Origin: Escherichia coli
GTDB lineage: Bacteria; Pseudomonadota; Gammaproteobacteria; Enterobacterales; Enterobacteriaceae
Length of the DNA stretch: 64,000 nt
Reading direction: 5' to 3' (one strand)
Assembly: GCF_051903065.1 (NCBI RefSeq)
Contig: NZ_CP178438.1
The notes beneath the pieces are model-generated. The model was given only the letters and a program-made list of their open reading frames with translations, had not been told where the DNA came from and searched no databases. The translations under genes were made by a program, and so were the position numbers. Below, one piece after another: positions 12,136-41,218 of the stretch. Position 1 is the first letter of the stretch, and the number at the start of each line of letters is the position of its first letter.

Positions 12136-12498
12136 GGGGCTGATTCTGGATTCGACGGGATTTGCGAAACCCAAGGTGCATGCCGAGGGGCGGTTGGCCT
12201 CGTAAAAAGCCGCAAAAAATAGTCGCAAACGACGAAAACTACGCTTTAGCAGCTTAATAACCTGCTTAGAGCCCTCTCTCCCTAGCCTCCGCTCTTAGGA
12301 CGGGGATCAAGAGAGGTCAAACCCAAAAGAGATCGCGTGGAAGCCCTGCCTGGGGTTGAAGCGTTAAAACTTAATCAGGCTAGTTTGTTAGTGGCGTGTC
12401 CGTCCGCAGCTGGCAAGCGAATGTAAAGACTGACTAAGCATGTAGTACCGAGGATGTAGGAATTTCGGACGCGGGTTCAACTCCCGCCAGCTCCACCA
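12136..12498 (+). ncRNA. ssrA: tmRNA (SsrA), intact 363 nt
   Basis: Starts GGGGCTGATTCTGGATTCGACGGG, contains the tag-peptide reading frame region and ends ...GGTTCAACTCCCGCCAGCTCCACCA. Confidence 0.95.
12454..12498. repeat. Prophage attachment-site repeat, ssrA-proximal copy (45 bp)
   Basis: ATGTAGGAATTTCGGACGCGGGTTCAACTCCCGCCAGCTCCACCA is repeated exactly at 45935-45979. Confidence 0.9.
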
Positions 12499-13417: not shown

Positions 13418-14518
13418 TTATTCCATTTCAAGATCATCAATCTTCACTTCGAGTTCAATACTGGTTGTAAAACCGTTATCCGGGCTGACGGTATGTGTCA
13501 GAGTCGTAATGGTCCATTCCGCATCATCTATCGGCTGTTTAAAGCCACTGACTTTCACTGGCATTTCCGTGTAGAGATCTGCCCGACCTTCCGCCAGTTG
13601 TAGCGAGAATGACGCAACGCCGCGTTGCAGGCGTTCCCACTGCATTTTCGCTGCCCGTTCAGCGTTGCTCCGGTTGGCATAAGTGCGATTAAGTACCAGC
13701 ACGTTTTCATCCGTACCCACCAGGTAATCGCCCTGCTTTGCTTCCGGCTCTTTCTTCTGCTTTGCGGTCCTGCGCTTACGCTTCACCGTGGTGCTTTCTT
13801 TCTTCGCGGGTTCGCGGGTATGCAACCAACTGGCAATTACGCCCGTATAGGCTCCGCGATCTGCCAGGGTAAAGCGGTGACTGTCGCCGTCCTTGCGTGT
13901 GATAGTGATCACCGGCAGAGGTTTACCGCTGGCGCTTTTGCCCTGTCCCTGCCGGATGAATAACAGATTGCCATTTTTCACCGACGCAATAGCACCGTAC
14001 TGGCGCGCCAGCCGCATCAGAAAACTGCCGTCACTCTCATTGGTCTGGTCTATATGTTCCACGGGCTTATCCGACAGGTCTTTACCCAGTGCCATCTTCA
14101 GCTTGTGCCGCGCGGCTATTTCCTTCACCACTTCCCCGACGGTGGTCTTGTGCCACGACTTTTCACGACGGGTATTCAGCGTTTCCCGAAAATCAGCACT
14201 TCGCGCCCGGATAGTCAGGCGGTCCGGTGCGCCAGTGTGTTCAATCTCGTCCACCGTGAATGCCCCTTTAGGGAAAAGCGGCTGCCCCTTCCAGCCCAGC
14301 GCCAGCGTAATGACCGCACCACGGCGCGGCAGCACGATTTTTCCGTCGGCGTCGTCCAGCTCCAGATCAAGCTGGTCCGCTTCAAAGCCCCGATTGTCCG
14401 TCAGAGTCAAACTCATCAGGCGGTTATCCAGCACAGTGGTGATATCCCTGCCCTCAATACTGATGCTGAATGCGGGAGTTTTGTTGCCTTTGTTAAGCAG
14501 TTCAGAGCTGAAATTCAC
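13418..14518 (-). CDS. Tail protein D (late control gene D family)
   Basis: 366-aa ORF at the P2 D position; overlaps the U stop. Confidence 0.85.
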   Translation of the reverse strand: MNFSSELLNKGNKTPAFSISIEGRDITTVLDNRLMSLTLTDNRGFEADQLDLELDDADGKIVLPRRGAVITLALGWKGQPLFPKGAFTVDEIEHTGAPDRLTIRARSADFRETLNTRREKSWHKTTVGEVVKEIAARHKLKMALGKDLSDKPVEHIDQTNESDGSFLMRLARQYGAIASVKNGNLLFIRQGQGKSASGKPLPVITITRKDGDSHRFTLADRGAYTGVIASWLHTREPAKKESTTVKRKRRTAKQKKEPEAKQGDYLVGTDENVLVLNRTYANRSNAERAAKMQWERLQRGVASFSLQLAEGRADLYTEMPVKVSGFKQPIDDAEWTITTLTHTVSPDNGFTTSIELEVKIDDLEME

Positions 14519-31683: not shown

Positions 31684-33450
31684 ATGAACACCACACTGAC
31701 ACCCGCAGATCTCGATCCCCGTCGGCAGGCCATGCTGCTGTACTTTCAGGGATACCGCGTCGCCCGCATTGCTGAAATGCTAGGCGAGAAAGTTGCAACC
31801 GTTCACAGCTGGAAAAAACGCGACAAGTGGGGTGACTATGGGCCGCTGGATCAGATGCAGCTCACCACCGCCGCACGCTACTGCCAGCTCATTATGAAGG
31901 AGCACAAAGAAGGGAAAGATTTCAAAGAGATTGACCTGCTGGCGCGCCAGTCGGAGCGCCACGCGCGGATCGGCAAGTTTAACAATGGCGGCAACGAAGC
32001 CGACTTAAACCCTAACGTCGCCAACCGCAACAAAGGCCCACGCCGTCAGCCGGAAAAGAATGTTTTCACCGATGAACAGATTGAGAAGCTGGAAGAAATC
32101 TTCCATTCCTCCATGTTCAACTACCAGCGCCACTGGTGGGAAGCCGGAAAAACCAACCGCATCCGCAACCTGCTGAAGTCACGCCAGATCGGCGCAACCT
32201 TCTATTTTGCCCGTGAAGCCCTGATTGACGCCCTGCTGACCGGACGTAACCAGATTTTCCTTTCCGCCAGCAAGGCACAGGCCCACGTCTTTAAGCAGTA
32301 CATCATCGACTTCGCCAAAGAAGTGGAGGTGGAGCTGAAAGGTGATCCGATGGTGCTTCCTAACGGTGCCACGCTTTACTTCCTCGGCACCAATGCCCGC
32401 ACTGCCCAGAGTTATCACGGCAACCTGTATCTGGATGAATATTTCTGGATACCGAAATTTCAGGAGCTGCGCAAAGTGGCTTCCGGTATGGCTATTCACA
32501 AAAAATGGCGACAAACCTATTTTTCCACGCCATCCAGCCTGACACACAGTGCTTATCCGTTCTGGTCCGGTGCGCTGTTCAACCGTGGACGCAACAAAGC
32601 CGACAAGGTGGACATCGACCTGTCCCACAGCAATCTGGCCCCCGGCCTGCTGTGCGCAGACGGGCAATACCGCCAGATAGTCACCGTGGAAGATGCGGTG
32701 CGCGGCGGCTGTAACCTGTTCGACCTCGACCAGCTACGCATGGAGTACAGCCCGGACGAATACCAGAACCTGCTGATGTGCGAGTTCGTGGACGATCTCG
32801 CGTCCGTGTTCCCGCTCAGCGAACTGCAGGCGTGCATGGTGGACAGTTGGGAAGTCTGGACCGACTTTCATGCACTGGCCCTGCGCCCGTTTGGCTGGCG
32901 CGAGGTGTGGATCGGTTATGACCCGGCAAAAGGTACGCAGAACGGCGACAGCGCCGGATGCGTGGTGGTGGCACCGCCAGCCGTGCCAGGCGGTAAGTTT
33001 CGCATTCTTGAGCGTCACCAGTGGCGCGGGATGGACTTCCGCGCCCAGGCTGACGCCATCAAAAAACTGACCGAACAGTACAACGTGACCTATATCGGCA
33101 TCGACTCGACAGGTGTCGGTCACGGGGTTTACGAGAACGTGAAAGCGTTCTTTCCTGCCGTCCGGGAGTTTGTCTACAACCCCAACGTTAAAAACGCCCT
33201 GGTACTCAAAGCCTACGACATTATCAGTCACCGTCGTCTGGAGTTTGACGCCGGACACACCGACATAGCGCAGTCATTTATGGCAATCCGTCGCGCCACC
33301 ACCGCCAGTGGCAACCGCCCGACCTATGAAGCCAGCCGCAGCGAAGAAGCCAGCCACGCCGATCTGGCCTGGGCAACGATGCACGCACTGTTTAACGAAC
33401 CGCTGCAGGGCGAGTCCGCCAATACCAGCAATATTGTGGAGATTTTTTGA
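31684..33450 (+). CDS. Terminase ATPase (large) subunit P
   Basis: 588-aa ORF; divergent from O and coupled to Q. Confidence 0.9.
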   Translation: MNTTLTPADLDPRRQAMLLYFQGYRVARIAEMLGEKVATVHSWKKRDKWGDYGPLDQMQLTTAARYCQLIMKEHKEGKDFKEIDLLARQSERHARIGKFNNGGNEADLNPNVANRNKGPRRQPEKNVFTDEQIEKLEEIFHSSMFNYQRHWWEAGKTNRIRNLLKSRQIGATFYFAREALIDALLTGRNQIFLSASKAQAHVFKQYIIDFAKEVEVELKGDPMVLPNGATLYFLGTNARTAQSYHGNLYLDEYFWIPKFQELRKVASGMAIHKKWRQTYFSTPSSLTHSAYPFWSGALFNRGRNKADKVDIDLSHSNLAPGLLCADGQYRQIVTVEDAVRGGCNLFDLDQLRMEYSPDEYQNLLMCEFVDDLASVFPLSELQACMVDSWEVWTDFHALALRPFGWREVWIGYDPAKGTQNGDSAGCVVVAPPAVPGGKFRILERHQWRGMDFRAQADAIKKLTEQYNVTYIGIDSTGVGHGVYENVKAFFPAVREFVYNPNVKNALVLKAYDIISHRRLEFDAGHTDIAQSFMAIRRATTASGNRPTYEASRSEEASHADLAWATMHALFNEPLQGESANTSNIVEIF

Positions 33451-34475
33451 TGGGAAAGAGTAAGAAAAACCGCGCTGCGGCGACGAATCAGCTCAAGCAT
33501 AAAAGCCAAACTTCAGCCGAAGCATTCAGCTTCGGTGATCCCATTCCAGTACTTGACCGCCGCGAACTGCTGGACTATGTGGAATGCGTACAGACGGATC
33601 GCTGGTATGAGCCACCCGTAAGTTTTGACGGACTGGCGCGAACATTCCGCGCCGCCGTTCACCACAGCTCACCGATTGCAGTGAAATGCAACATTCTGAC
33701 CAGTACCTACATCCCTCACCCGCTGCTCAGCCAGCAGGCTTTTTCGCGTTTTGTGCAGGACTATCTGGTTTTTGGTAACGCCTACCTGGAGAAACGCACG
33801 AACCGGTTCGGTGAAGTGATCGCCATTGAGCCTGCTCTGGCAAAATACACCCGACGCGGGTTAGACCTTGATACCTACTGGTTTGTGCAATACGGTATGA
33901 CAACCCAGCCGTATCAGTTCACGAAAGGCAACATTTTTCATCTGATGGAACCTGACATTAACCAGGAGATCTACGGCCTGCCCAGCTATCTTTCTGCTAT
34001 TCCGTCCGCCCTGCTCAACGAGTCCGCCACGCTGTTCCGCCGCAAGTATTACATTAACGGCAGCCATGCAGGTTTCATCATGTACATGACCGATGCCGCG
34101 CAGAACCAGGAGGATGTGAACAACCTCCGCAACGCGATGAAAAGCGCCAAAGGTCCAGGCAATTTCCGCAACCTGTTTATGTACTCGCCTAACGGCAAAA
34201 AAGACGGACTTCAGATCATTCCTCTGTCTGAAGTCGCGGCGAAGGATGAGTTTTTAAACATCAAGAACGTGAGCCGGGACGATATGATGGCTGCGCATCG
34301 TGTTCCGCCACAGATGATGGGGATCATGCCGAATAATGTTGGGGGGTTTGGGGATGTGGAGAAGGCCAGCCGCGTGTTTGTCCGAAATGAATTGATGCCG
34401 CTTCAAAAATGTCTTGAAGGTATCAATTGTTGGCTAGATGCAGATGTAATAAAGTTTAACCAATACATTTTGTAA
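33447..34475 (+). CDS. Portal (capsid vertex) protein Q
   Basis: 342-aa ORF, size and position of P2 Q. Confidence 0.9.
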   Translation: MMGKSKKNRAAATNQLKHKSQTSAEAFSFGDPIPVLDRRELLDYVECVQTDRWYEPPVSFDGLARTFRAAVHHSSPIAVKCNILTSTYIPHPLLSQQAFSRFVQDYLVFGNAYLEKRTNRFGEVIAIEPALAKYTRRGLDLDTYWFVQYGMTTQPYQFTKGNIFHLMEPDINQEIYGLPSYLSAIPSALLNESATLFRRKYYINGSHAGFIMYMTDAAQNQEDVNNLRNAMKSAKGPGNFRNLFMYSPNGKKDGLQIIPLSEVAAKDEFLNIKNVSRDDMMAAHRVPPQMMGIMPNNVGGFGDVEKASRVFVRNELMPLQKCLEGINCWLDADVIKFNQYIL

Positions 34476-34483
34476 ATTCCTTC

Positions 34484-34511
34484 GGTAAAAGGCCGCTATG
34501 CGGCCTTTTTT
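34484..34511. terminator. Bidirectional terminator between Q and the cargo operon
   Basis: AAAAGGCCGC-TAT-GCGGCCTTTTTT hairpin between convergent gene ends. Confidence 0.8.
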
Positions 34512-35202
34512 AATTTGCGTCATCATTTTTTTTATTTTCTAAAGACTCAATATACCCTCGCAAATTAAATTCTTTATTTTCTCTGAGTTTAGGTCCTTCT
34601 TTAGTATCTGAGCCTCGTTGCTCACGTAAACTTTTATTCAAAGCATCGATCAATTCTTGTCTAGAGATTTCCGTTGCAATTAACCCATCAAAATATCTCT
34701 TCATTTTTCTCGCGCTCTCGGTTACTTTAACAACTTCAAAACCAAGGCAGAGCAAATAAATTAGCGTTGTTATTGTAAATCCAGTATCTACAGAGATAAA
34801 ATAGCCAATATCGAGCACTTTCTTAAGTGATTCCAAGGGCATAACCATGCACAATAAAACCAAAAGCAAACCAGTGCCAAGATATAAATAAGTCATTGAG
34901 TTTCTTTCAATCAGCTTGAAGTACTCATCTCTCTGACCTTCAAAGCTAGCAACAATCTTAGGGGGTGTTTTTTTTGGAAGATCGAGGTCTCGAATTTTAT
35001 CCTGAAGATCTACGTATCTTTTAATAAGTAAACCGACTATGGCAGCAGTGATTAATGAAAGCGTTTTCGATAAAATATTGCCCATTTCCACGAGCACATT
35101 TAATTTATAATTAATCAGATATACTACACTCGATGCCAATACTCCACTTAAAATGGATAATATTATATAAAACGCATATCGCTCCACTCGATTTTTAATC
35201 AT
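34510..35202 (-). CDS. Cargo protein B: predicted 4-TM membrane protein with charged C-terminal tail
   Basis: 230-aa ORF with four hydrophobic helices (approx. residues 9-30, 43-60, 96-114, 133-149); AT-rich; start overlaps the stop of the upstream ORF (ATGA). Confidence 0.7.
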   Translation of the reverse strand: MIKNRVERYAFYIILSILSGVLASSVVYLINYKLNVLVEMGNILSKTLSLITAAIVGLLIKRYVDLQDKIRDLDLPKKTPPKIVASFEGQRDEYFKLIERNSMTYLYLGTGLLLVLLCMVMPLESLKKVLDIGYFISVDTGFTITTLIYLLCLGFEVVKVTESARKMKRYFDGLIATEISRQELIDALNKSLREQRGSDTKEGPKLRENKEFNLRGYIESLENKKNDDAN

Positions 35203-36230
35203 GGATTTATTACCCCATCAGCTAACAATCTGAGCAACCACTCTACCATTTCCTCACAAACGCTATCAATAACAGGCATCCCATTATTATATTCAATATT
35301 GACGGTGTCTTTTATTTGTATTTCGTCATTTCTTAAAATACCTGCGCCTTTTAACTCTATGGTTAATGCTTCATCACGGTTATCGATAAGAGCCTCCGTA
35401 ATTTTCCTTAAAATATTTTGTTCCTCATCATTAGCTTTATATTTATACCCTATAGAAACATCTATCGTTAAATGTTCTCGAGACATGTCAACTGAAACAT
35501 CCTGTGATGCATTGTGTTTACGCAACACATCAACTCTGTGCTCACCGATAAGAGATTTCAATAATTCACTAGCGACATCATCTACTCCATCTCCATAAGA
35601 GGATAGAGGCAGCTTCAAGCTTACATTTTTTACATTGCTACGCATCAGCAATTCATTAGTCAAACGTAAATTTCCTGCTTGTAATATAATAAAGTTATCA
35701 ACATCAACCCTTAGATTATCCTTCAAAATGTAATTAATATAATTTTCAATATCTTTAATTCTAATTGCACGACTTTGCAATATTATTACATGATTTTTGA
35801 CAATCCCGATATATGCAACACTATCTAAATATTCTTTCGGAACACTTCCAGTAAGCTTTAATGCTTCATAAGCCAATCGATTTTTTTTATATTCTGAAAC
35901 ATCAAAAACTGGCACACTATTCCCTGGCTCAATATAAACTATTTCACCAAAAAATATACCATTCCGTTCGAAGGAATCAGATAAAACCATGTGCGCGTGG
36001 CTGCTAACACAAGGGTCACTATCTCCAGTTTCAAGATAGTAAATTCTGTCCTCAACGGTTGGAAACTTGTGATTAACAATTTCGTTCATACGATTCTGCA
36101 AATCACTTGCTAAAAGAGCATCCTTTTTAGGAAGCATTACTGCGTGTCGATAGTGTAACGCTTTAACTTTTGAGGGATTACTGGCCATGAAACATCCATT
36201 ATTAATCTTAGATTTAGTGATATGGAACAA
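35199..36230 (-). CDS. Cargo protein A: soluble protein of unknown function
   Basis: 343-aa ORF (start may be the internal MASNPSK); AT-rich; no motif recognised; translationally coupled to the 4-TM ORF. Confidence 0.7.
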   Translation of the reverse strand: MFHITKSKINNGCFMASNPSKVKALHYRHAVMLPKKDALLASDLQNRMNEIVNHKFPTVEDRIYYLETGDSDPCVSSHAHMVLSDSFERNGIFFGEIVYIEPGNSVPVFDVSEYKKNRLAYEALKLTGSVPKEYLDSVAYIGIVKNHVIILQSRAIRIKDIENYINYILKDNLRVDVDNFIILQAGNLRLTNELLMRSNVKNVSLKLPLSSYGDGVDDVASELLKSLIGEHRVDVLRKHNASQDVSVDMSREHLTIDVSIGYKYKANDEEQNILRKITEALIDNRDEALTIELKGAGILRNDEIQIKDTVNIEYNNGMPVIDSVCEEMVEWLLRLLADGVINP

Positions 36231-36274
36231 TCATACAATCTGTTAATTTTTCTTGCCACAACTCCTTTTCGCGC

Positions 36275-36294: not shown

Positions 36295-36498
36295 TGCCCG
36301 CTTTATGTAGTGGTTTTCATGCAGGTGCATGATCTACGCAAAAGCCCGCCAGTTCTGGCGGGCCTTAGCAAAAACGATCCTCAAACGATCATGCGATCTC
36401 ATGCGGCATAGACATGCACTACAGAGCTAACGCCTCGCAAGGGCTCGTTGTTCAACCTTGCTGACGCCAGAAACAAGTTCAGACGCCAGCAACGTTTC

Positions 36499-36804
36499 TT
36501 AATGCAGCCAGCTGTCGTCTTCCCACACCTTCTGCATAATTTTCATCACTTGTTTTCTTTCTTCGTCCAGTTGCAGTCCGGTCAGTTCCACACCGTTAGA
36601 GCTACCTTTGCGGATACGAATTACCGTTTTGGGATACAGGGGGCGCAGATTGCGGTAAAGCTCGGATTCAAGGGCGTCCAGTGTAGACTGGCTAATCTTC
36701 TGCTCTTTATCGATCATTATTTCAATGCGCATAAAAGTCACCTCAGCTGATGACATCCATTGAGCGGTTGTATTCGTGGGTTCTGATTTTTGCCATGAGT
36801 TCAT
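36499..36804 (-). CDS. DinI-family protein (Tum/DinI-like, SOS module)
   Basis: C-terminal part MRIEIMIDKEQK...LDALESELYRNLRPLYP...QKVWEDDSW resembles DinI; true start may be the internal Met. Confidence 0.65.
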   Translation of the reverse strand: MNSWQKSEPTNTTAQWMSSAEVTFMRIEIMIDKEQKISQSTLDALESELYRNLRPLYPKTVIRIRKGSSNGVELTGLQLDEERKQVMKIMQKVWEDDSWLH

Positions 36805-36931
36805 CTGTCAGTTCAGAAACCCACTGCAGAGCCAGCCCCTTCTCTTCATCACTACACTCACTAGCCGCTACAAGCTTAAGAAAAAAATCAATGCGCTGGA
36901 GCTTCAAAGACTCCAAAAAATAGTCCTGCAT
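36743..36931 (-). CDS. Small hypothetical protein, first gene of the LexA-controlled operon
   Basis: 62-aa ORF starting about 43 bp downstream of the LexA box. Confidence 0.45.
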   Translation of the reverse strand: MQDYFLESLKLQRIDFFLKLVAASECSDEEKGLALQWVSELTDELMAKIRTHEYNRSMDVIS

Positions 36932-37083: not shown

Positions 37084-39498
37084 TTAATACAGGTTTCGCC
37101 ACTTATCATCTTCCTGCAAACGCTGGTTCCGATAGAAGATACGCAGGCCTGCTCCTGACGGAATACTGCCACCGCGAAGGAGTAAATCGACCTCTTTCTC
37201 GCTGCCATCAAATCCTCTGGACTTCAGTTCATAGACGAGCTGCTGTCGCTGATGATCTGTAATTCGCTGTTTGTAGTCTTTACGCCGTTTCGGCTTAACC
37301 AGGCGTAACCTTGCTGCCAGTTCCCGGCGCTCTTTTTTGCTCATACTGTGCAGATAATCGTGCAACTCCTTGTCATCCATGCGGGTAATATCCGTTCTGG
37401 TGTCCCCATCAGCTGATTTATCTTTCTCCTGTTGGTTCAAATTTTCAGCAAGGGGACAGTTATTGCCACGAGTCCAAGGGGCGCAAGCGCCCTGGTCGGC
37501 TACCGCCTCCTGAACGTCAACGGCTTTACGAACCATTTTCCACTTCACTGCATGAGTGCAGATCTTGCCCTCTGCAATGGGTGACCAGATGCCATAAATA
37601 CGAATGCCGTGATCGCCATAGGCGGTCGGCTCTTCGTTAATTTCATAAGCAGTTCTGATGAGGTGATATTTGCGGGGAACCAGTACGCCACCCTGCTTCA
37701 TGATGTAAGTGGCAAAACAACCAGCATCAGCAGCAGCCAGGATGGCATCAAGGCGCGGGTTATCCAGTACCGGCGCACCTGCTTTTTTGTCGCCCTGTTG
37801 CCTTGCCGCCTGACCAGCCAGCAATCGCAGTTCACGGTAAGCCTGACGCCCCGGAATACCAAAGAAGCGGAATTGCTGAACACGATGCAGAGACGCCCAG
37901 GCATTAACGTATTCAGCGTTATCACGCAGGGATTTACCCGTTTCCTTGCTGATCTCGCCAGCCAGACCACGCCCGTCAATGTTCTTACTAATGTATTTCG
38001 CAATGTAGCTTGTCGGCGTTCCTTTGCGCGGGTTTATCAGCTCAGACTTAAAGCGTGGCCCCGTGTTATTGCCCAGCTCCTCGCGGTCTTCACGGATGGC
38101 AAACTTACGCAACAATGCAGTAATGGCGCGGCGGTCTTTTTTGCGCATGAAACACAACAGGTGCCAGTGAACTGTGCCGTCATGATGCGGCTCAGCCACC
38201 CGCACGCCATACCAGCGCAACCCGGCTTTGTGCATAGCCTTACGAAATGCAGCAAACATGCCGACCAGATAATCGCTGCTTTGTCTTACTGTCGCGTTGG
38301 TCCAGGTCGGGTTTGGCCTGCCGTTATTTAGCGTGGAATGGAAACGTGACGGACAGGTGATGGTGTAGAAAACGGCGCAGTCACCACGCATTTCCGCGAT
38401 AAGCTCCAGGCCTTTAACACAGGCCATCATCTCGTTGCGGCGATGCGCCGGGTTGCTGCTGCTGGCGTTTACCACATCCTCCATGTTCAGCGTGTCGCCG
38501 TCTTCGTTCACCAGTTCATGAGAACGGAAAAACTCCAGCGACTTACGGCGCTGCTCACGTTTATGCATCACGGCTTCATAGCTAACATAGGGAGATGCTT
38601 TTTTGCTGACCAGGCAGACAGCACGCAACTGCTCTTCCCGCAATTCGCAACGCATCTTCCATAATTTCCGATACCACCAGTCGGCGCACAGCATACGCGC
38701 CAGCGAACCCGGAATGAGTTCATAAGGCACAGGTTTGCGGCGGTTTCTTTTCCGGCGGAGTTGCTCAAACGCAGGCGGTATGACATCCAGTCGCAGGGTT
38801 TCTGCAGCCACCTTTTCCCATGTCTTGCGGATTTCTTCTGGCTTAACATCATCGGAGGCGTACAAATCACCACAAGCGGCATCAAGACACATGCTCATAT
38901 GCGCAGCGACAAGGGTAGACAGGCGTTTCACCTGATCCTGACTCATTTCAGGCAGGATCAGCAGACCGTCCAGCCCCTCATGGCTTGCCATAAAACGAAA
39001 AGATGCAGATAGCTGGCTGTCGCGTACATGCTCCAGTCGTTCCAGACATGGCTTAATCGTCTCACGCAAATAGCGGGAATAAGCCTTTGGCCTGCCCATG
39101 CTGCTGAAATATTCAATACGTTGCATCAGCGGCTTGCTGATATGGGAAGGCTGGGCGTTGACGTCAGCCAGAATGACCATGTCTGGATTAAAACGCTGCT
39201 GCTCATGCGCCATCTTTGCCCGGCTAATGAGCTTATCCTGCTCCATTTCGCGTTGGACAGGATCACGGGATTCATTAAAGAAATAATGCTCCCAGACCTG
39301 ATCACTCAGTGCCTCGCGGCGCAGTTGTTCCTGCTCGTTATCGGTAGCGTACAGAGTGATCAGGTTTGAAAGCGCAGAAACCGGCGCAACTTCCGCCGGG
39401 TCCAGATAAGGGTTAATGGCCTTTTTCGGGCTGTTCCATGAGAACGCTGCGGCAGCCTCGTTAAAGCCGCAGCAGTTGTTCATATCGGCATGACTCAT
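37084..39498 (-). CDS. Replication initiation endonuclease A (rolling-circle, HUH-type)
   Basis: 804-aa ORF with HxH motif (GTVHWHLL); P2 gene A position. Confidence 0.88.
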
Positions 39499-40352
39499 GC
39501 ACGTACTCCGTACACGGCAGAACTATCCACGCCACGCGAATAATCAAATCCCACCCAGCAGCGCGGCCCGGAAACAGCAATGATTTCTGTTGCTGATTTA
39601 CCCTCGCCAGCTGCCACACCGATGCTGCGTTTTACCTTGATATAGTGGTGAATAAAATTGCGATACAGCGAACGGATCAGGGATGTGTCACTGTTAGAAA
39701 CAATGACCGGATGTCCTTCTGATGACCGATGTTCAAGAACGGATGCCAGGTGATACTGATCATCTTCAGTGAAACCATCAGTGTGATAGCCGGAAAACGT
39801 ACCGTCATACGGCGGATCGCAATACACCACATCCCCCGCCTTCAACATCGCCAGCGTTTCATCAAAGCTGGCGCAGATAAACGTTGCTCGCTGGGCTTTT
39901 TCTGCAAATGCGCGAATTTCTTTTTCAGGGAAATACGGATTTTTATAATTACCGTAGGGAATGTTGAAATGCCCGCTCTTGTTATAGCGACATAAACCAC
40001 GGTAACCGTGACGATTGAGATACAGGAAATATACCGCTTTCATGAAATCAGTAATTTCAGTTGAGTAATTAAACTCCTGCCTTATGTTGTAATAAGCCAC
40101 CTCCCTGTTTGCGATCTCAAATAAAACTCTGGCGCGAGATATAAACGATTCACAATCAGCAGCAACCTTTTTATAGAGGTTGATTAAATCAGGATTAATA
40201 TCCGCAACAAGATAGCTGGGGTACTCCGTCTCCATCATCACTGCACAGGAACCCGCGAAAGGTTCAACCAGTCGCGGGCCAGCAGGAAGGTGTTTTTTCA
40301 GTTCGGACATAATTGCGGTTTTATTTCCCGCCCATTTCAGGATGGTGCTCAT
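39495..40352 (-). CDS. DNA adenine methyltransferase (Dam-like orphan MTase)
   Basis: KWAGNK and DPPY motifs; stop overlaps the A start. Confidence 0.85.
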
Positions 40353-40576
40353 ACAGCACCTCCGTTGTAATGTTTGCCTTTCAGCTCTGCGATTTCCTGA
40401 CAGGTAATGCAAAGCTGCACTCCAGGAATGGCGCGGCGGCGTGCTGGCGGAATTGGCACTTCACATTCAATGCAAAGCACGCGAGACACGCCCGGTGTTT
40501 TGGCACGGGCAGCACGGATATGGCGCTGGCGTTCTTCTTCAACGCGCTGCTGTACGAGATCCATTGCATCAGCCAT
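40349..40576 (-). CDS. TraR/DksA-family C4 zinc-finger protein
   Basis: 75-aa ORF with CIECEVPIP...CITCQ four-Cys motif. Confidence 0.7.
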   Translation of the reverse strand: MADAMDLVQQRVEEERQRHIRAARAKTPGVSRVLCIECEVPIPPARRRAIPGVQLCITCQEIAELKGKHYNGGAV

Positions 40577-40815
40577 TAGTGGATCTCCTGCGCTTCGTTC
40601 TGGATTGCTTCAGCGGTCACACGCAGCAGTTCTGCCGCTTCGACGTGGTTTAGCTGGCGGGATGTGATATGACACGCAAGACTATCAAGGCGGGCAGCCA
40701 TTGCTTCAGCCCTTGCCCGGCGTTCTTCCAGACGAGCCTCTGTCAGTAAAATATTAAGCCCTACGTCATCCGGTCCGGTTTTAGTCGTGAGGGTTTCAAT
40801 ATTACGCATAATCAA
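40576..40815 (-). CDS. Hypothetical early-region protein
   Basis: 79-aa ORF coupled to neighbours. Confidence 0.45.
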   Translation of the reverse strand: MIMRNIETLTTKTGPDDVGLNILLTEARLEERRARAEAMAARLDSLACHITSRQLNHVEAAELLRVTAEAIQNEAQEIH

Positions 40816-40876
40816 TTCTCCTGAATTTAGATAAAGGGATGCCCGGCGGGTTTACGCCATTAATTTCATTAGTTGG

Positions 40877-41218
40877 TTAATTCGGCATGGTTAGCCGTCT
40901 GGGAAATAAGCTCACTACTGCACGAAAATGATTCATTGCTTTAATCAACTCCCGCTTTTCGTCAGTGGTCAGCTCATTAATGCTGATGCTATGACGTTCA
41001 GCTGGAATTTTTGCCATAAAGAATATGGCAGCCAGTGCCCGTTTATTTTGTTCGCTATTAATATCCCGTGGATCACGCATATCTTTAATAAACCGTTCAA
41101 GCTCTGACTCAATATTAAGACCAAAAACTTTCGCCCTTAACTCCGCAATATGATTAAGTCCATTCAGGCGTTCACCGGGGCTTAATGGAACAGTCGCCGC
41201 AGCGCCTTCAATAGCCAT
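40877..41218 (-). CDS. Hypothetical early-region protein
   Basis: 113-aa ORF in the early operon. Confidence 0.45.
   Translation of the reverse strand: MAIEGAAATVPLSPGERLNGLNHIAELRAKVFGLNIESELERFIKDMRDPRDINSEQNKRALAAIFFMAKIPAERHSISINELTTDEKRELIKAMNHFRAVVSLFPRRLTMPN

Follow-up and report, generated by a model that had tools for sequence, protein, structure and literature searches.

A two-gene cargo operon beside the cos-like site of a P2-like Escherichia coli prophage: a candidate divergent RexAB-type phage-exclusion system

What do two AT-rich genes, here called A and B, do for a P2-like prophage of Escherichia coli that carries them between its portal gene Q and its cos-like site? The locus was analysed in a window of 64,000 nucleotides (nt) from contig NZ_CP178438.1 (RefSeq assembly GCF_051903065.1), the term window referring throughout to this whole stretch. 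A preliminary description, made from the letters of the DNA, had likened the arrangement of a cytoplasmic protein followed by a small polytopic membrane protein to abortive-infection modules of the RexA/RexB type. In our judgement there is an even chance that the cassette is a cos-adjacent cargo operon of a P2-like prophage that would encode a divergent RexAB-type two-component phage-exclusion (abortive-infection) system. This reading is based on the predicted RexA fold of A, the topology of B, the overlap of the two genes, their conserved pairing, their genomic context, the hotspot in which they lie and a published prediction by DefensePredictor.

The prophage of the window is P2/186-like, with the locus order gpA, DinI-like gene, cos-like core, A, B and portal Q. 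Gene A (35199–36188) and gene B (34510–35202) are both on the minus strand and share an ATGA stop/start overlap at 35199–35202 that can be read directly from the sequence. The two coupled minus-strand open reading frames (ORFs) of the preliminary description were therefore borne out by the ORF list and the sequence, and the overlap, which has the same −4 spacing in close homologues (L013–L016), suggests that translation of A and B is coupled. The length of the first product, however, had to be revised. The mechanical ORF list gives gene A as 35199–36230, or 343 amino acids (aa) from a TTG at 36230, and this was the length first described. Translation almost certainly begins at the ATG at 36188, for a product of 329 aa, and the TTG is unlikely to be used, because in an E. 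coli locus of 99.5 % identity RefSeq places the start at ATG 36188 (WP_097289648.1, 329 aa), all homologues in the alignment start at the corresponding methionine and the PHROG alignment of A begins at residue 15 of the 343-aa form. Gene B encodes a predicted inner-membrane protein of 230 aa (RefSeq WP_115440194.1).

Both genes differ in composition from the surrounding phage genes, as first described. The GC content is 0.348 for A and 0.341 for B (GC at third codon positions, GC3, of 0.27 and 0.30) compared with 0.507 for portal protein Q (33447–34475, plus strand), 0.566 for large terminase P (31684–33450, plus strand) and 0.528 for the gpA-type replication endonuclease (37084–39498, minus strand), for which GC3 is 0.57–0.70. 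The AT-rich island as a whole has a GC content of 0.34 against ~0.53 in its surroundings. Genes A and B are thus compositionally foreign, and horizontal acquisition of the cassette is the best explanation. Chance ORFs were rejected, as the longest stop-free run in shuffled versions of the region (n=500) had a mean of 82 and a maximum of 191 codons against 343 observed, and as A has full-length homologues across genera (38–92 % identity; Escherichia, Enterobacter, Vibrio, Aliivibrio and Aeromonas). The hairpin terminator reported between these genes and Q was recovered by a terminator scan and in the sequence at 34487–34509 (10-bp stem, six GC pairs); it lies between the stop codons of B and Q, is common to the converging A–B and portal/terminase operons and occupies the position of tQ in P2. 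A candidate sigma-70-like promoter (36230–36259, minus strand; GTGGCA-18-TATGAT, 9/12 matches) is located between cos and gene A.

The cos-like core GGCGTGGCGGGGATACGAG (36294–36276, minus strand) lies 106 nt upstream of the start of gene A. The exact P2 cos pattern had no match in the sequence with up to three mismatches; the context of the core resembles the P2/P4 cos GCGGGC.GGCG.GGCGGGGA...GCGCGC of the constructs of Rousset et al. and, judging from this context alignment, the site is a variant of the P2/P4 cos. The core marks a conserved edge of the cassette. It precedes A by 90–106 nt in every P2-type locus and by 413 nt in P4-type psu–int loci; its constant presence upstream of A fits an exchange of cassettes via the shared cos region. 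Backbone homology with other P2-like phages picks up again at about 36267–36270 (query position 68–71), from which it follows that the variable AT-rich cassette spans about 34476–36267, running from the portal stop codon to the conserved cos region in agreement with the composition profile and flank matches. The cos flank was matched by 1273 of 5426 complete E. coli genomes while the cassette was found in only two.

The P2 defence hotspot has been defined as the cos-proximal interval between gpA and gpQ, and the P4 hotspot as the psu–int interval (Rousset et al. 2022, PMC9122126). The cassette lies inside the gpA–gpQ hotspot so defined. The preliminary description had assigned the pair to the cos-proximal region in which P2 carries tin and old; the location between Q and the cos-like site holds, but the equation with the tin/old position does not. 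On the P2 map cosL occupies 1–19, the Q terminator 160–181 and Q 187–1221, with ~140 nt from cos to the Q terminator, while old and tin, which are transcribed away from cos, lie on its gpA side at the right end. The cassette occupies the Q side, opposite to P2 old/tin.

Protein A is soluble and acidic (isoelectric point, pI, 5.3). An AlphaFold2 model of A, built from a 21-sequence alignment, had a mean predicted local distance difference test score (pLDDT) of 71.5 and a predicted template modelling score of 0.68. When this model was compared with the PDB by Foldseek, only two chains gave significant matches (E 1.8e-6 and 2e-5), both from entry 8TWQ (RexA). Two different structure-comparison methods picked this same entry by a wide margin, and RdgC (PDB 2OWL) was also among the top structural matches. 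The model consists of a beta-rich part (residues 1–155), an alpha/beta insert (~166–290) and a final strand with a long C-terminal helix (292–323). This order of secondary-structure elements agrees with the published topology of RexA, in which a split globular domain (corresponding to 1–155 plus 292–329) holds an inserted domain (166–290). A is predicted from the model to have the RexA fold, namely a globular beta-sheet domain that is split by an inserted alpha/beta dimerisation domain. The A family is sizeable, as a search of 1.84 billion representatives with a profile of A and 20 relatives detected 854 clusters (50 % identity, E≤1e-3). That A might serve in phage structure, packaging or replication was considered and rejected, no homology of that sort having appeared in any search.

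Protein B has hydrophobic segments at about residues 9–30, 42–60, 104–123 and 135–157, a K/R-rich N-terminus, a second loop of 43 aa with 10 K/R and a C-terminal tail of 73 aa with 16 K/R. Four transmembrane helices (TM1–TM4) are predicted and, by the positive-inside rule, both the N- and C-terminus would lie inside. The AlphaFold model of B (pLDDT 72.6) is all-helical, with TM4 running on into a long helix and a helical, charged tail, so that hydropathy and model agree on the four hydrophobic helices and charged tail noted at the outset. B matched neither the RexB family (PDLC02340 in PADLOC, phrog_14878 in PHROGs) nor anything else in PADLOC, Pfam, NCBIfam or PHROGs, and a tblastn search of phage genomes with B was likewise empty. 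The ~170-aa partners of distant A homologues were nevertheless detectable by hhalign as relatives of B (90.7 %, E 1.3e-6) over TM3, TM4 and the following helix. This homology between B and the partners of distant A proteins indicates that the two genes of the module are inherited together. Only the P2/P4 subfamily has the last ~40 residues of B, and a conserved LRENKEFNLRGY motif is present in the subfamily-specific cytoplasmic tail.

Conservation of the pair was assessed in a scan of viral contigs with query alignment A1, in which 141 relatives of A were found and 80 analysed. In 76 of the 80 viral loci the A homologue was followed, at a spacing of −32 to +26 nt, by an ORF of 165–294 aa with three or four hydrophobic segments. 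Of the four exceptions, three had no downstream ORF, two of these having little sequence past A, and one lacked an intact ORF for A. A soluble protein followed by a membrane protein is therefore a conserved operon on temperate phages or satellites. Homologues also recur at the cos-proximal position of other P2-like prophages and extend to P4-like satellites: a 63 %-identical A with a 228-aa partner occupies the same gpA–portal position in an E. coli 186-like prophage, a 45 %-identical A with a 226-aa partner is carried by an Aeromonas P4-like satellite and a 38 %-identical A with a 220-aa partner lies in the psu–int interval (P4 hotspot) of Enterobacter. Both the recurrence and the pairing that the preliminary description had proposed to look for were thus observed.

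Among the 80 loci, four were in the gpA–portal context, ~38 converged on the late antiterminator Q and at least 18 came directly after CI on the same strand, including phage Perceval (the LF82 prophage) and Acinetobacter phages. The post-CI position is the slot of rexA–rexB in lambda. In two IMG/VR contigs (L077, positions 372–2721, and L078) a CI that is 61 % identical to lambda CI is followed by an A–B pair (345 and 185 aa) in place of rexA–rexB; in DNA similarity, the nearest phage records come from Proteus, Providencia and Salmonella. Two further loci are of note in themselves. In Shigella phage SfIV (L002, 3501–4324) the membrane partner is only 108 aa long and abuts an IS1 transposase gene, and this module appears, from its sequence, to have been inactivated by the insertion. 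In Acinetobacter phage phi1_092021 (PQ859669; L001, 4001–5002) a distant A homologue was deposited as 'DefenseFinder protein' with no system name; PADLOC gave no match for this homologue, and some annotation pipeline apparently already ties the A family to a defence protein.

How such a pair might act can be suggested by analogy with lambda RexAB and the RexABpp system of Pseudomonas putida. A single transcript expressed in the lysogen would provide A and B in coupled amounts, A as a cytosolic sensor with a RexA-like two-domain fold and B as an effector in the inner membrane, with four helices and cytoplasmic N- and C-termini. On infection by a second phage, A would be activated and would engage the cytoplasmic loop or tail of B. 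Oligomers of B would then open or disrupt the membrane, so that depolarisation and a fall in ATP would stop growth and abort the infection, and this would constitute the pair's anti-phage activity.

Members of the family and its neighbours are already present in published surveys. The very proteins of the window pair (WP_097289648 and WP_115440194) are listed as 'hypothetical + hypothetical' from P2 hotspots in Table S5 of Rousset et al. 2022 (PMC9122126) and are absent from the tested systems given in the portions of Table S2 that were consulted. In DefensePredictor (Science 2026, PMC13092281), WP_000654526.1 is a 'predicted novel defense gene' and was linked by HHblits at 95.8 % to a Halomonas RexA labelled by DefenseFinder, a link that was not reproduced here. 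This protein is the A-type member of the pair TMRA (WP_000654526.1 and WP_000841195.1; E. coli LF82 prophage, phage Perceval), which belongs to the same family as the window pair. The TMRA A-type protein shares 24 % identity with A and is included as a row in alignments A1 and A3, both of which were built with the window protein as first sequence; it is also found by tblastn with window A. Literature searches by protein accession and PHROG number gave no match.

Several observations weigh against a RexAB-type system. PADLOC gave no match at E≤1 for protein A or protein B. As its RexA and RexB models (PDLC02339 and PDLC02340) do detect the lambda proteins (9e-110 and 8.6e-61), the absence of Rex at the sequence level is a true negative. 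Pfam likewise had no match for either protein, and a Pfam scan of 128 members of the A family returned neither RexA nor any other relevant family. Neither protein matched NCBIfam, and protein A matched no PDB sequence by phmmer or profile, which agrees with the earlier statement that neither could be matched to a named family. A falls in phrog_3482 ('unknown function', E 3e-32) and lambda RexA in the separate phrog_12654; hhalign gave probabilities of <1 % both for alignment A1 with lambda RexA and for alignment A3 with a 19-sequence RexA alignment. For B, a RexB-type alignment was matched by the close B family at 67 % (E 5e-5) and by the broad B alignment at 0.4 %, a comparison that is unreliable for hydrophobic proteins, and a Foldseek search of viral structures with the B model returned neither a significant match nor RexB. 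The confidence of the A model is moderate and its insert was modelled at a pLDDT of only 43–67, which leaves the globular domain as the main basis of the RexA match.

The remaining points concern charge, expression and activity. The pI of A is 5.3 against 8.6 for lambda RexA, and non-specific DNA binding of the RexA kind is doubtful because A is acidic. DNA binding is not strictly required for exclusion by lambda, and by that analogy the acidic nature of A may matter little. The promoter candidate upstream of A is weak, with eight promoter-like sites found in the region against 9.3 expected in shuffles. Rex-like P4 cassettes of other families were inactive on an eight-phage panel in the parts of the study by Rousset et al. 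that were consulted (PMC9122126). No family member other than the TMRA pair is known to have been tested, and this pair was cloned by the DefensePredictor authors with FALSE in the 'defensive' column (PMC13092281); this result is not decisive because Rex-type systems have a narrow spectrum. Of the RexA/RexB-type module originally envisaged, the predicted fold of A, the topology of B, the pairing and the context stand, set against the lack of a PADLOC match and the non-defensive outcome for TMRA.

Other explanations have to be considered beside a RexAB-type exclusion system. A fold match that is an artefact of a moderate-confidence model, with the pair being an unrelated cargo operon, would fit the low scores of the insert; we consider this quite improbable, as the agreement of two structure-comparison methods on one PDB entry, the presence of RdgC among the top matches, the independent HHblits analysis that ties a family member to a RexA-labelled protein, and a gene order, partner type and post-CI location that are all as in rexAB each argue against it. 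If the RexA similarity is accepted, the roles of the two proteins could still be reversed, so that A would be a toxic or antiviral effector sequestered by B until infection. Such a variant has been described among the five known Rex-like systems, in Butters gp30/gp31, where effector and regulator are swapped (PMC12894663). The 43-aa loop and 73-aa tail of B could dock A, tight translational coupling suits a pair of toxin and neutraliser, and A is acidic, unlike the DNA-binding RexA. Reversal is nonetheless judged unlikely, given that the membrane protein is the effector in four of the five described systems (PMC12894663) and that no catalytic or toxin motif was detected in A.

The pair might also be a prophage accessory module that does not serve mainly in exclusion and instead tunes lysis–lysogeny or induction, acts as an addiction or stabilisation pair or modulates host physiology. 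Lambda RexA tilts the bistable switch towards lysis without RexB, many family members lie directly after the CI repressor and the defence assays of one family member were negative, all of which are consistent with such a role. Here and in P4-like satellites, however, the pair is far from the immunity region and in hotspots with validated anti-phage contents, a switch modulator would not need an obligate membrane partner and the acidic A is a poor candidate for binding operator DNA, so that this explanation is also not very probable. A slim chance is given to membrane-level superinfection exclusion, in which B would block DNA entry or an envelope step without growth arrest and A would be accessory. 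B is a prophage-encoded predicted inner-membrane protein, and superinfection-exclusion systems are common in prophage cargo, but the RexA-like fold of the conserved cytosolic partner points to intracellular sensing and, to our knowledge, injection blockers generally work without a 330-aa cytosolic partner.

If the pair is active as a RexAB-type exclusion system, it would add a sequence-orphan branch to the five RexAB-like systems described so far (PMC12894663). It would also show that cassettes combining a RexA fold with a four-helix partner are widespread and are exchanged among P2-like phages, P4-like satellites and lambdoid phages, although the PADLOC, Pfam and NCBIfam models applied here do not detect them. 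The trigger of Rex activation is unresolved ~70 years after the rII experiments of Benzer (PMC12894663), and the cassette provides a compact 1.8-kb construct for asking what triggers Rex-type systems. The practical value is modest, namely better annotation of prophage cargo and of the content of defence hotspots in Enterobacteriaceae; the system type, the hotspot and the locus are already on record, making this a useful annotation rather than a surprise. A wider interpretation, which we offer tentatively and hold to be possible but rather doubtful, is that the window pair is the P2/P4-hotspot branch of a large family without a Pfam domain that combines a RexA fold with a four-helix protein. 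This family, and not canonical rexAB, would be what commonly fills the post-CI and post-Q slots in temperate phages of gamma-proteobacteria. Its acidic sensor would detect a phage protein instead of DNA, the tail of B would serve for gating or docking as a domain that RexB does not have, and 'Rex' would be a broad structural superfamily largely missed by sequence-based defence finders.

The neighbourhood of the cassette contains further genes that bear on the prophage as a whole. The conserved backbone between gpA and cos (36344–36931, minus strand) holds a 62-aa ORF (36743–36931) and the DinI-like gene (36499–36804). This gene is followed by a hairpin, GCCCGCC-AGAACT-GGCGGGC with TTTT, at 36363–36344, which from its sequence and placement probably ends the gpA operon before cos. 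In the early region, a Dam-family adenine methyltransferase gene (39495–40412, minus strand; TIGR00571, 318 bits) is located just upstream of gpA, and AT-rich dips at ~39800–40200 and ~40800–41200 may be further cargo. Directly beyond the prophage integrase (42928–43941), the minus strand at 43955–45712 encodes a 585-aa anti-phage dCTP deaminase (NCBIfam NF041025, 420.5 bits with a cut-off of 400; PADLOC dCTPase model, 2e-146), so that a known defence gene flanks this end of the prophage. Beyond the deaminase, an AIDA/Ag43-type autotransporter adhesin (46140–49280) and an IS5-family transposase (49527–50495), both on the minus strand, point to a mosaic island adjoining the prophage. Near the other prophage end are the transfer-messenger RNA gene ssrA (12136–12498, plus strand; tag ANDENYALAA) and, close to it, a VgrG-related ORF (13418–14518), an arrangement which suggests that the prophage is integrated at or near ssrA.

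Comparison with known systems places the window pair close to several of them by architecture. Lambda RexA/RexB (PDB 8TWQ; PF15969; PDLC02339/02340) has no detectable sequence similarity to A and B. Lambda RexA is 50 aa shorter than A and is basic rather than acidic, RexB has 144 aa against 230 aa for B and is without the 43-aa cytoplasmic loop and 73-aa tail, and lambda rexAB lies in the immunity region whereas the window pair lies at the P2 cos hotspot. B is, however, like RexB a small four-transmembrane inner-membrane protein encoded directly downstream of a RexA-type gene, and its four hydrophobic helices and positive-inside pattern are as in the RexB proteins of lambda and P. putida. For RexABpp of the P. 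putida prophage P1 (PP_5643/PP_5644; PMC12894663), defence, DNA binding and RexB-dependent membrane damage have been demonstrated, whereas the window pair is known from sequence alone; the RexA of P. putida was linked to lambda RexA by HHpred at 98 % (PMC12894663), and no such profile link was found for A. RdgC (PDB 2OWL), the other structural neighbour of A, is a chromosomal, recombination-associated, ring-shaped DNA-binding dimer that lacks a membrane partner and does not form part of phage cargo.

P2 old/tin provides a parallel in position, being non-essential, AT-rich, cos-proximal cargo of the gpA–gpQ interval that excludes other phages, as is proposed for the window pair; the encoded proteins (the OLD nuclease/ATPase and Tin) are unrelated to A and B. 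A PARIS, retron, Old or Tin-type system was rejected for the window pair, as PADLOC gave no such matches. The P4-hotspot cassettes of Rousset et al. labelled 'RexA / RexB', 'RexA + 4TM' (pFR81) and 'HP + 4TMs' (pFR87) are, like the window pair, cos-adjacent cargo composed of a soluble protein and a four-helix protein, and some match the Pfam models of RexA and RexB. According to the parts of that study that were consulted, the cloned 'RexA + 4TM', 'RexAB-like' and 'HP + 4TMs' cassettes were additional tested systems that were not validated (PMC9122126). Identity of the window pair with these cassettes was rejected, since a hidden Markov model of the A family matched none of their proteins, which indicates different families. 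In TMRA the four-helix partner is encoded directly downstream, as in the window, but has 168 aa without the long C-terminal tail of B, and the pair comes directly after a CI-like repressor rather than at the P2 hotspot.

The actinobacteriophage pairs Sbash gp30/gp31, CarolAnn gp44/gp43 and Butters gp30/gp31 can be likened to the window pair by description, each being a prophage-encoded cytosolic RexA-like protein with a membrane protein that acts in heterotypic defence (PMC12894663); they differ from it in host, phage lineage and their immunity-region context. These pairs indicate that the Rex architecture tolerates extreme sequence divergence. The type of system proposed here is not new in kind, and the window pair would be a new, sequence-orphan member of it.

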